DNA of 64,000 nt from an uncultured Chthonomonadaceae bacterium (GCA_963835065.1 CAWIEK010000002.1:96001-160000), one strand, 5' to 3'. Positions 36,611 through 38,701 are shown, counted from the first letter of the stretch. The notes: generated from the sequence alone by a model not told the origin. Translations and numbers: made by a program.

Positions 36611-36737
36611 AGGTTTCAGGTTTCAGGTTTCAGGTGTCAGGACAATACGCTCGTTTTTCATGGTTCTTCCTGATCTTGACCAGACGGGTATTACCTGACA
36701 CCTGAAACCTGACACCTGACACCTGAAACCTAACACC
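36611..36737. repeat. inverted heptamer repeats (CAGGTTT/CAGGTGT)n / (ACACCTG/AAACCTG)n
   Basis: Directly after the polymerase-like stop codon. Confidence 0.8.
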
Positions 36738-38701
36738 TATCCTACAAACAGCCGCGCCACCGCATCCCGCAGCGGATCGGTTTCCTGCGCAAGGGCGGCG
36801 CGGGCGAAGATTAGGCCGGGATTGGGGGCGCGCATGGCGCGGGACAGGACGCCGTAGCCGGTGTGCGCCTGCTCCGCGAACATCTCTTTTTGGATCGAAA
36901 CCCATTGCGTTATGCCCCGCGCCATGCCTTCGCGCGAACCGATGCAGTTCATCAGGAACTCCGGGGGCGTCAGTCCTTCGCGGTAGCCATGCCGAATGGT
37001 GTAGGTACTTCCATTCAGCGCGGCTACGACGCCCTGCGCGGCGACGGCTTTGAGCAGCAGTCTCATGCCGCCCCGCGCTCCACTGGCAAGCGTCAGCAGT
37101 ACGGGGTCGGACAGCGATTCCGGCTGCCGCATCCGTTCGGCAATGCGGGCCGCGAATTCTTCCAGCCAGGCGTTCCATTCCTCGGGCGCGTCACGGATTG
37201 GGCGAACCGGGGCGGGCCAATTTCTGCCCAAAAACGGCCCGTATCCCCCGCCGATGTGCCGCGCCGCTTCAAAGCCGCGCAGCGTCAGGCGGTGCAGAAT
37301 GTCCAGAACGGGTTCCACAGCCGCATGGCCTTCCTTCAGCAGTCGTTGGCGCAAAGGCTCTTCCAATACGCCCCGCGCTAAAAGGCCGTTTTGAAGCGAC
37401 AAAGGCTGTTCCAGGATGTGTTCGATTTCAGCGCGTCCGGTGGGCGTTCGCGCTAAAAAGGCCAGTCCCAGGCGGGAGTCATGCAAAGGACGGAGGACAT
37501 TCAGGGTTTCCACATCCCGCCGCAAATGCCCGGCAATCGTAAGTTTTTCGCCTGCTTCCATTTGCGCCGCTTCCGTGATAGGCAGAAACACGCTGACCGT
37601 ATCCCCGTCAAAATCCAATTCCATCAGGCTGCATGTAAACGGATGTACTTGAATGGTTTGACCGGAAACGCGAACCGGATGGAAGGCCACAATGCCAGTT
37701 GGCGTGATTGTCGGGGCGCGGTTGAGCAATACCCACGAACGCGCCATGATGCGGTCCAAAACCTGCGCGGCGGCCTCACTGTGGGCTTGTACGGCTTCCA
37801 CGCTTCCCATTTCGCGCGCGACTAGCGGCGCGAACAGCGTCCACGCGATTTCTTCCGGCAACCCCACTTGTTCATAGGATAAGCCCGCGCCAATCGTCGC
37901 CACCGCCCGCCCGCTGAACTGCGTCCGCGCGCCGAACTCCAGATGATCCGGCGTGAGCAAAACCGCAAAGAAGGCTTGCAGGCGCGTTTGCATATCCGTT
38001 CGCGCCTTTAACAGCAGGCTGTCGGGGGCTTGCCCGTCCAGCATCCGCGCCAATCGCCCGCTTGCTTCCGCCAGTTCGCCATATTCGGGCAGTTCCACAA
38101 ACGCGCCGATTGCGGACAGCGTAATTTCCGGGTTCCAGGGGTGCGGCGCAGATTCCGCCAGGCGCAAGATTTCTCCTTCAGGTTCCTCGTTCCCTTCAGG
38201 TTTCTCGGCAAACTTTTCACTCGCTCCCTTATTCACGCCTTCGCCGGCCTCTTCAGCCGCTGCTTTATTGGCCTCTTCAGCCGCTGCTTTATTGGCCTCT
38301 GCATCGGTCTTTTCACTTGGTTTAGAAGCTGTCTGCGCCAGCCGAAACGTCAGCCCGTGTTCGGAAAAGTCGCTGACAATGCCGCCAACCGCCAGCCGAC
38401 GCGCTACATCCGCCCATTGCGGCGAGGGTGGCGTGGATTGCGCAACCGGGCCGGCAATCAGCCGTTCCGCCAGCAGGGGCGCGTCCACACGCGCGGCAGC
38501 CCGCGTGTTGAACGTTTCGCGGATGTTTTCCGTCGCGTCTGCGATGCCCAGGGCGTGGAACTCCGCCTGCCCAATGCCGCGAACAGTGCGCGGGCGTTGC
38601 CGTCGCGTGGATTTTGTCACTCGCAAGGTGGTGCAGCCTGCCCCAATACACCCACCCCACCGTACTCGGCACGGACATGGGCGGGCCGTGCCGGTTGACA
38701 C
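36737..38701 (-). CDS. C-terminal part of a miniature RNA polymerase: RpoB C-terminus fused to a reduced RpoC core (homology begins ~38580)
   Basis: IGQAEFHAL (beta GEMEVWAL-like), RLARMLDGQAPD (clamp helices), FSGRAVA..GLPEEIAWTLF, VLLNRAPT, HP..C..ELDFDGD (37601-37621), SGARG, GYREGLT..GSREG (bridge helix), DPLRD..RLFVG. Confidence 0.88.
   Translation of the reverse strand: MSTGTARPCPCRVRWGGCIGAGCTTLRVTKSTRRQRPRTVRGIGQAEFHALGIADATENIRETFNTRAAARVDAPLLAERLIAGPVAQSTPPSPQWADVARRLAVGGIVSDFSEHGLTFRLAQTASKPSEKTDAEANKAAAEEANKAAAEEAGEGVNKGASEKFAEKPEGNEEPEGEILRLAESAPHPWNPEITLSAIGAFVELPEYGELAEASGRLARMLDGQAPDSLLLKARTDMQTRLQAFFAVLLTPDHLEFGARTQFSGRAVATIGAGLSYEQVGLPEEIAWTLFAPLVAREMGSVEAVQAHSEAAAQVLDRIMARSWVLLNRAPTITPTGIVAFHPVRVSGQTIQVHPFTCSLMELDFDGDTVSVFLPITEAAQMEAGEKLTIAGHLRRDVETLNVLRPLHDSRLGLAFLARTPTGRAEIEHILEQPLSLQNGLLARGVLEEPLRQRLLKEGHAAVEPVLDILHRLTLRGFEAARHIGGGYGPFLGRNWPAPVRPIRDAPEEWNAWLEEFAARIAERMRQPESLSDPVLLTLASGARGGMRLLLKAVAAQGVVAALNGSTYTIRHGYREGLTPPEFLMNCIGSREGMARGITQWVSIQKEMFAEQAHTGYGVLSRAMRAPNPGLIFARAALAQETDPLRDAVARLFVG

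Follow-up and report, generated by a model that had tools for sequence, protein, structure and literature searches.

The minus-strand open reading frame (ORF) 38701-36737 in a 64,000-nucleotide stretch of DNA from an uncultured Chthonomonadaceae bacterium (the window) matches the Pfam domain Rpb1_2 and bacterial beta' chains, and it is not a stand-alone beta' paralogue but the C-terminal half of a fused beta-beta' gene that is predicted to start at 40175. The encoded protein appears to be a single-chain mini RNA polymerase of about 40% of the usual size, present alongside the host's normal RNA polymerase. It has no recognizable trigger loop and its gene follows directly on a gene for an extracytoplasmic function (ECF) sigma factor with its own putative promoter. 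As a tentative reading, to which we give a little less than an even chance, this trigger-loop-less fusion may be a slow, non-processive core, selective for nucleoside triphosphates (NTPs), which binds the ECF sigma factor encoded upstream and tunes the self-promoted loop of that factor. The original prediction for this DNA described the altered catalytic motif and the deletion correctly, but made no mention of a fusion, a sigma gene or a promoter.

For comparison, we assembled 91 distinct full-length relatives with a median length of 1,027 aa, drawn from 70 loci and 24 database proteins after removal of duplicates; together with the window protein they give 92 rows. The search was seeded with two active-site motifs, and the rows are not independent, since they include closely related sets of about a dozen Poribacteria and of eight Chloroflexota. 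A motif-free check used the best 150 matches among 50%-identity representatives, from which 10 chains of at least 1,200 aa were dropped. A trigger-loop profile built from E. coli beta' 900-950 scored 81-94 bits on 41/41 canonical beta' chains, whereas neither the window protein nor any of the 91 relatives exceeded 0.1 bit; it matched none of the 140 short representatives and nine of the ten long ones. The distance from the R780 equivalent to region H is 28 residues in the window protein and 25-35 in 92/92 rows, compared with 539 in E. coli. AlphaFold2 models of the intact homologue L011 and of the window C-half, compared by secondary structure and aligned ranges, both contain a 32-residue bridge helix, a seven-residue loop and three short helices. 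Profile, spacing and models thus confirm that the trigger loop is absent, as had been claimed, and its loss appears to be family-wide. A third gene supplying the loop was considered and rejected, since none is conserved across phyla among the neighbours.

The models also define the ends of the protein. Residues 1-518 of L011 (predicted local distance difference test, pLDDT, 92.6; predicted template modelling score, pTM, 0.89) superpose on beta with Z up to 31.9 and an rmsd (root-mean-square deviation) of 2.5, and residues 70-611 of the window C-half superpose on E. coli beta' 16-1354 (8fvr; Z 26.3, rmsd 3.0, 488 aligned). Because this superposition ends at beta' G1354, the C-terminus is fixed as region H, for which the sequence profile alone gives a weak match; the first arginine of its LxRAxR motif is present in 91/91 and 111/117 relatives. 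The region-H-like end of the original prediction is therefore borne out structurally, whereas the '~25 aa' that were thought to lead up to it after the bridge helix are the remainder of that helix. Other regions are reduced as well: beta 823-1054 corresponds to about 3 profile positions, beta 147-490 to about 38, and beta' 805-1317 to 7 residues. The family has lost the regions of the flap, lobe, jaw, fork loop 2, lid and rudder, and a 25-residue stretch before switch 2 is missing as well. The bridge helix, switch 3 and hybrid-binding residues are retained, and each site of the metal-binding Asp triad and of the RNA-contacting residues K1065, K1073, H1237 and Q688 is 88-100% conserved. By its sequence, the protein seems to have kept the parts that bind Mg2+, NTP, short RNA and template and to have lost those for speed, downstream-DNA grip and processivity; from known structures, we presume that the contact to sigma region 2 is also among the parts kept.

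At the active site, the predicted change from NADFDGD to ELDFDGD and the retention of the Asp triad and of the NRAPT arginine were all verified. The window DNA aligns without gaps across the motif to that of G002, a genome of the same genus, which reads GLDFDGD, so that Glu-Leu is no local indel artefact and Leu is common to the genus. As a hallmark of the family, Glu-Leu had to be rejected: DFDGD occurs in 91/91 relatives, NADFDGD in 58/91, DADFDGD in 11/91 and ELDFDGD in none (0/91), and Glu alone is found in 1/91 and in 7/123 representatives. Of these 123 representatives, 49 have exact NADFDGD, and the residues of the Asp triad persist in 121, 121 and 120, respectively; at position 458, 80 have Asn, 27 Asp, the said 7 Glu and 4 Gln. 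N458 and A459 thus stand at 65% and 76%, while N458, A459 and R425 are invariant (41/41) in canonical beta' chains. Changes of N458 are scattered across a FastTree tree of the family. N458 is thus relaxed family-wide, and Glu-Leu is confined to the lineage of the window, where by itself it is a minor, lineage-specific detail. That 58/91 relatives keep NADFDGD counts against the original prediction, which holds in that the Asp triad is conserved and no trigger-loop equivalent was found by sequence or in the models. The window protein and 66/91 relatives have the complete set of eight residues that is universal in two-barrel RNA polymerases, namely the three Asp, beta D814, K1065 and K1073, and beta' R425 and P427 (PMC2919709).

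The relaxed substrate choice that had been derived from N458E is weakly founded, since no relative has Glu-Leu (0/91), R425 is kept in the window, and N458S costs less than 5-fold in selectivity, while R425 is the major sugar-selection determinant (PMC7862312). With this main selector in place, use of deoxynucleotides (dNTPs) by the window enzyme is probably not relaxed; R425 is replaced in 9/91 relatives. A selective decay of NTP-entry relative to hybrid-binding residues (84% vs 99% in the first set) was not reproduced among the 50%-identity representatives, and we dropped the idea because the K1065 motif had served as a seed for the first set, in which a clade of eight near-identical rows was also included. 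Eight Chloroflexota sequences (L069, L072, L075, L076, L078, L079, L080, L085) carry E813A, D814Y and R1106T and keep NADFDGD; this clade is possibly a naturally non-polymerising branch.

Homologues are single chains with both Rpb2 and Rpb1 domains, and the fused product in the window, of about 1,145 aa, accordingly reads as a trimmed beta followed by a trimmed beta', the first ~70 codons of the beta'-like frame from 38572 being the end of beta. In the N-half we located the equivalents of E813/D814 (39179-39174), K1065 (39107), K1073 (39083), R1106 (38861) and H1237 (38630). The fused frame is split by one extra base, probably an assembly error, because the base is missing in G002, the rpoB gene of the same assembly switches frame too, and 70/85 related loci hold one full-length ORF (of the rest, 6 are split and 9 incomplete, in most cases because of a contig end). 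This housekeeping rpoB (G000:C48:61059-64968) has at least 7 frame switches and lies in at least eight frame pieces; the adjoining rpoC is intact, with both NADFDGD and trigger loop. Such fragmentation suggests that single-base indel errors are frequent in the assembly and that other 'split genes' of this genome need caution. A programmed frameshift was rejected, as the six split loci are each broken elsewhere. The larger insertions relative to G002 are net in frame (36, 6, 3, 99 and 150 nt), the G002 copy carries two other frameshifts, and the flanks of the locus are syntenic in both genomes. Two of the insertions (~39027-38912 and ~38336-38187; net 99 and 150 nt, frame kept) are of low complexity; the second, which is modelled with low pLDDT, lies close to the beta-beta' junction. 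Short simple repeats at 40050-40170 and 36630-36735 are dispersed genome-wide (259, 83, 84 and 74 exact matches for four units). One repeat block stands in frame at the beginning of the mini polymerase gene, inside its first ~45 codons, and a later ATG near 40103 may therefore be the true start.

Relatives were recorded in at least 7 phyla (Armatimonadota, Chloroflexota, Planctomycetota, Poribacteria, Latescibacterota, Hydrogenedentota and Kiritimatiellae), and their occurrence is patchy: the gene was found in 9/61 relative genomes and in 18/251 genomes of the phylum. All five carrier genomes examined also have a canonical beta' with a trigger-loop domain. As to a viral or plasmid residence of the gene, the best viral-contig match among the matches listed was distant, with E 7e-28 and 25% identity, and plasmids gave no match to the C-terminal 237 aa of the mini polymerase. 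Ratios of nonsynonymous to synonymous substitution (dN/dS) against G002 were 0.197 for the C-half (482 codons), 0.124 for the beta part (273 codons) and 0.199 for the sigma gene, and 0.128-0.229 in 11 other pairs. The mini polymerase therefore appears to be under purifying selection, and the near-invariant Asp triad together with dN/dS values of 0.12-0.23 argues against decay. In genome G011 the gene is present twice (L011:7903 and L199:2789): besides a sigma-polymerase cassette there is a solo paralogue, L011, which has a promoter motif of its own.

The sigma factor consists of regions 2 and 4 alone, carries a PxWMxD linker motif specific to the family, and co-occurs with the polymerase. Its stop codon overlaps the polymerase start (ATGA) in the window, such overlaps are frequent in other loci, and a cognate sigma gene lies at most 400 nt upstream of the polymerase gene in 77/80 loci, the window included (five loci with a short flank or a missing N-terminus were left out). 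In L022 and L050, sigma lies ~1 kb upstream. Across 61 genomes, both genes occur in 8 and neither in 51; G025 has sigma and a contig-truncated polymerase, and G034 a C-half at a contig start. The pattern GAAC-N15-17-GTGTC precedes sigma in 69/73 loci (spacer 16 in 66) compared with 1/424 control windows, and the cassette shares this conserved upstream promoter, like the region 2 and 4 architecture, with ECF pairs. Where the polymerase is separated from sigma, it has its own promoter copy in 2/3 cases (L011 and L050, not L022); the copies at the L011 solo paralogue and at L050 suggest that expression of the polymerase from this promoter is selected. Of five whole genomes, three have a single site with an extended promoter pattern, which lies at the cassette; one genome has two such sites and one has none. 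A wider regulon was rejected on searches that scored exact rather than degenerate sites, with 12 sites in the window's assembly (G000) vs 3-25 for other spacers, and 16, 9, 2, 4 and 16 sites in five genomes vs 13, 2, 2, 18 and 4 in controls, which is no consistent excess. Close to where transcription is expected to begin, 8-9 nt downstream of the -10 box, a GT dinucleotide is conserved in 51/69 promoters (~40872-40871 in the window) and in 14/21 promoters with a far start codon, largely regardless of start-codon distance. Among conserved neighbours, we found no alpha or omega gene, no third gene common across phyla, and no helicase, receptor, effector, resistance or defence gene linked to the cassette. 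ECF operons usually place an anti-sigma factor gene in the slot after sigma, which is here taken by the polymerase.

The slow, sigma-binding core that we favour could operate as follows. Sigma and host RNA polymerase would transcribe the cassette; the host core is implied because the fixed 16-nt spacer and the conserved -35 box point to a core with a flap, and the mini enzyme is flapless. The co-translated mini core would then bind sigma region 2 through its retained clamp helices, which we take to be the likely docking site, and would do so from the usual position of an anti-sigma gene. This mini holoenzyme could load template, Mg2+ and NTPs, slowly add a few nucleotides and stay at the promoter, since without trigger loop, lobe, jaw, lid and rudder few slow additions and no promoter clearance are expected. 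Depending on the occupancy of its active site, the mini core would compete with the host core for sigma or promoter. N458 might drift because the trigger loop, its partner in the closing site, is gone.

Several observations speak against this reading. In E. coli, substitutions at clamp-helix R275, E295 and A302 impair sigma70 binding, and the same three positions are changed in the family. The window copy is frameshifted as assembled and departs from 20/219 conserved columns, compared with a family median of 7, and the Chloroflexota clade (8 rows) is without beta E813, D814 and R1106, yet has dN/dS values of 0.16-0.19. The proposed loop targets itself, its sole visible target, and has no evident output. 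In bacteria, closing of the trigger loop speeds up catalysis ~10^4-fold and raises selectivity 5-10-fold (PMC7862312); for the archaeal loop the gain is ~30-fold, and a deletion mutant still reaches 0.42 per second on a full hybrid (PMC3737540). The same archaeal mutant barely extends RNAs of 3-6 nt and still extends hybrids of 8-9 nt, which argues against easy de novo synthesis of short products. These deletion data seem to cut both ways for the mechanism: the original suggestion of a slow enzyme with short products is plausible in view of the family-wide loss, and the short-product part is weakened by the defect on 3-6 nt RNAs.

Much of the same evidence bears on other explanations. A working second transcriptase, in which mini core and sigma, with or without host alpha and omega, transcribe whole genes from TGAAC-N16-GTGTC promoters, would have to compensate for the missing trigger loop, for example by the invariant LxRAxR arginines or an open secondary channel. 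The complete catalytic set, the retained bridge helix, switch 3 and hybrid-binding residues and the confident single-chain fold of the homologue (pTM 0.89) are compatible with it, as are the residual 0.42 per second of the archaeal deletion and the precedent for strong reduction in the 982-aa yeast plasmid Orf6 fusion (PMC3737540 and PMC2919709). We nevertheless regard it as unlikely, given the loss of the lobe, jaw and flap and of the fork loop 2, lid and rudder regions, the ~10^4-fold contribution of the bacterial trigger loop (PMC7862312), the N-terminal trigger helix kept in all solved two-barrel RNA polymerases compared in PMC10770324, and a promoter motif without consistent genome-wide excess. 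Similarly doubtful is a ~1,200-residue two-protein machine with private sigma and own promoter that makes RNA independently of the host core. The conserved catalytic residues stand against a non-catalytic decoy or sensor, that is, an RNA polymerase mimic which holds sigma and frees it when a polymerase-targeting molecule (an antibiotic, a phage protein or a nucleotide) binds, leading to more decoy: the Asp triad, K1065, K1073, H1237 and Q688 persist at 88-100%, the window protein has all eight universal residues, the apparent excess of NTP-entry decay was not replicated, and no effector, resistance or defence gene travels with the cassette. The position in the anti-sigma slot, the autoregulation, the variability of N458 (65%) and A459 (76%) against 41/41 in canonical chains, the patchy occurrence (18/251) and the clade that lacks MgB and NTP-phosphate residues under continued purifying selection would all suit such a decoy, which on balance we consider improbable.

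Still less probable is a relaxed-specificity oligonucleotide synthase with primase-like or signalling products from NTP or dNTP, as the original prediction proposed. Absence of the trigger loop, variable N458 and replacement of R425 in 9/91 relatives agree with it, and the GT conserved after the -10 box (51/69; 14/21 with far start codons) might fix a short product. The window, however, keeps R425 and most relatives keep N458, helicase, receptor or effector genes are not linked to the cassette, and an RNA polymerase that lacks the trigger loop performs poorly in initial synthesis (PMC3737540). That the family is functional and the window copy a recent pseudogene, with Glu-Leu as an early sign of decay, is very improbable: the frameshift at ~38577, the 20 departures from conserved columns and the two other frameshifts in G002 would fit, but at least 7 breaks are found in the essential rpoB of this assembly, a nearby permease gene is broken too, the larger insertions are net in frame (36, 6, 3, 99 and 150 nt), dN/dS is 0.12-0.20 and the Leu is common with G002.

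The trigger loop is treated as universal in cellular RNA polymerases, and here is a family that deletes it while its catalytic residues are under purifying selection. One cloned gene pair would probe what a two-barrel active centre does without this element, and the cassette could represent either a minimal orthogonal transcription system or sigma control by a polymerase look-alike, a type of control for which we found no paper. No published description of the family was found in a search that left out subscription papers and bioRxiv supplements, and the main text and one supplement of the ECF reclassification (PMC7826278) gave no match for RNA polymerase subunit terms.

Table. Positions of the mini polymerase cassette and its parts in the window
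Feature	Position	Strand	Basis or remark
Predicted ECF-type promoter: TGAAC -35 (40905-40901), 16-nt spacer, GTGTC -10 (40884-40880)	40880..40905	-	
ECF sigma factor, 196 aa, PxWMxD linker motif	40172..40762	-	Pfam sigma70_r2 + r4_2
Beta-derived N-half of mini polymerase	38579..40175	-	Pfam Rpb2_3 + Rpb2_6; profile alignment to E. coli beta
Extra base splitting the fused frame	38577..38578	-	Not present in G002
C-half: end of beta, then trimmed beta'	36737..38572	-	Model pLDDT 90.3, pTM 0.85
Clamp helices (beta' 268-310 equivalent)	37958..38089	-	Alignment; two helices in model
NRAPT with R425 and P427 equivalents	37709..37723	-	Arg in 82/91 and 106/120 relatives
Catalytic loop ELDFDGD (N458E, A459L; Asp triad intact)	37601..37621	-	Asp codons 37615-37601
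Bridge helix, 32 residues	36872..36967	-	Model helix 536-567; HH-align to E. coli beta' 718-796, probability 97.8
Seven-residue loop replacing trigger loop and jaw (~510 residues in canonical beta')	36851..36871	-	
Region-H (switch 1/clamp base) C-terminus, LxRAxR motif	36740..36850	-	Structural end-point beta' G1354

Two further observations concern other genes. An ATP-binding cassette (ABC) permease gene at 43047-44351 (+) of the window runs out of frame near its C-terminus, and its G002 orthologue is intact (416 aa). A second, partial Rpb1_5 match in G065 (G065:C1:37823-38338, +) lies in a 1,923-aa open frame, apart from rpoC of that genome.

With two double-psi barrels (folds by superposition) and the eight invariant residues, the mini polymerase belongs to the two-barrel polymerase superfamily, but it falls outside canonical RpoB/RpoC, full-length RpoBC fusions, the two-subunit yeast enzymes and the phage single-chain enzymes. 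RpoB and RpoC are its best structural matches (Z 26-32), and with these proteins and their ECF sigma factors it shares the beta-then-beta' order, both barrels, the Asp triad, K1065, K1073, D814, R425 and P427, the clamp helices, funnel, bridge helix and region H, and an ECF-type promoter. It differs from them as one chain of ~1,030 aa instead of ~2,750, as an accessory, patchy gene beside an intact rpoC, in its missing trigger loop, flap, lobe, jaw, fork loop 2, lid and rudder, and, in the window, in the absence of NADFDGD. The NCBIfam cut-offs for rpoB/rpoC were likewise missed, by protein P0001 with 147 vs 801 bits and by the window C-half with 132 vs 964 bits. The RpoBC fusions PRK09603 and PRK14844 also combine beta and beta' in one polypeptide; these models have 2,839-2,890 positions, however, and the mini polymerase scores 133-142 bits against cut-offs of 4,632-5,372. 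Long fused matches, unlike the mini polymerases, keep the trigger loop (9/10).

A further parallel is the yeast virus-like element pGKL2, in which K2ORF6p, the partner of K2ORF7p, is a ~980-aa beta-then-beta' fusion chain without trigger, lid or rudder homology (PMC2919709). The pGKL2 enzyme, which is poxvirus-linked, consists of two subunits, of which ORF7p adds beta' regions, and its clamp is mostly absent (PMC6211774). The mini polymerase, in contrast, has clamp helices and region H in one chain and a sigma factor as its partner, and no second-subunit gene that would complete beta' was found among neighbours conserved across phyla. With P23-45 gp96/gp64, phi14:2 gp66 and QDE-1, to which YonO is presumably to be added among single-chain two-barrel RNA polymerases, it shares one chain, two double-psi barrels, DxDGD and the bridge helix. 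It differs from the phage enzymes in that neither model has the N-terminal trigger helix after the bridge helix (compare PMC10770324). PolD may likewise work without a trigger loop, but the literature consulted on this gave no supporting passage, and the argument here does not depend on it. Finally, the cassette resembles ECF sigma/anti-sigma pairs as a self-promoted two-gene operon whose second member is coupled directly downstream of sigma. Such an arrangement is typical of these pairs, and what sets the cassette apart from them is the nature of the partner, which is a polymerase core in which Pfam finds RNA polymerase domains only.
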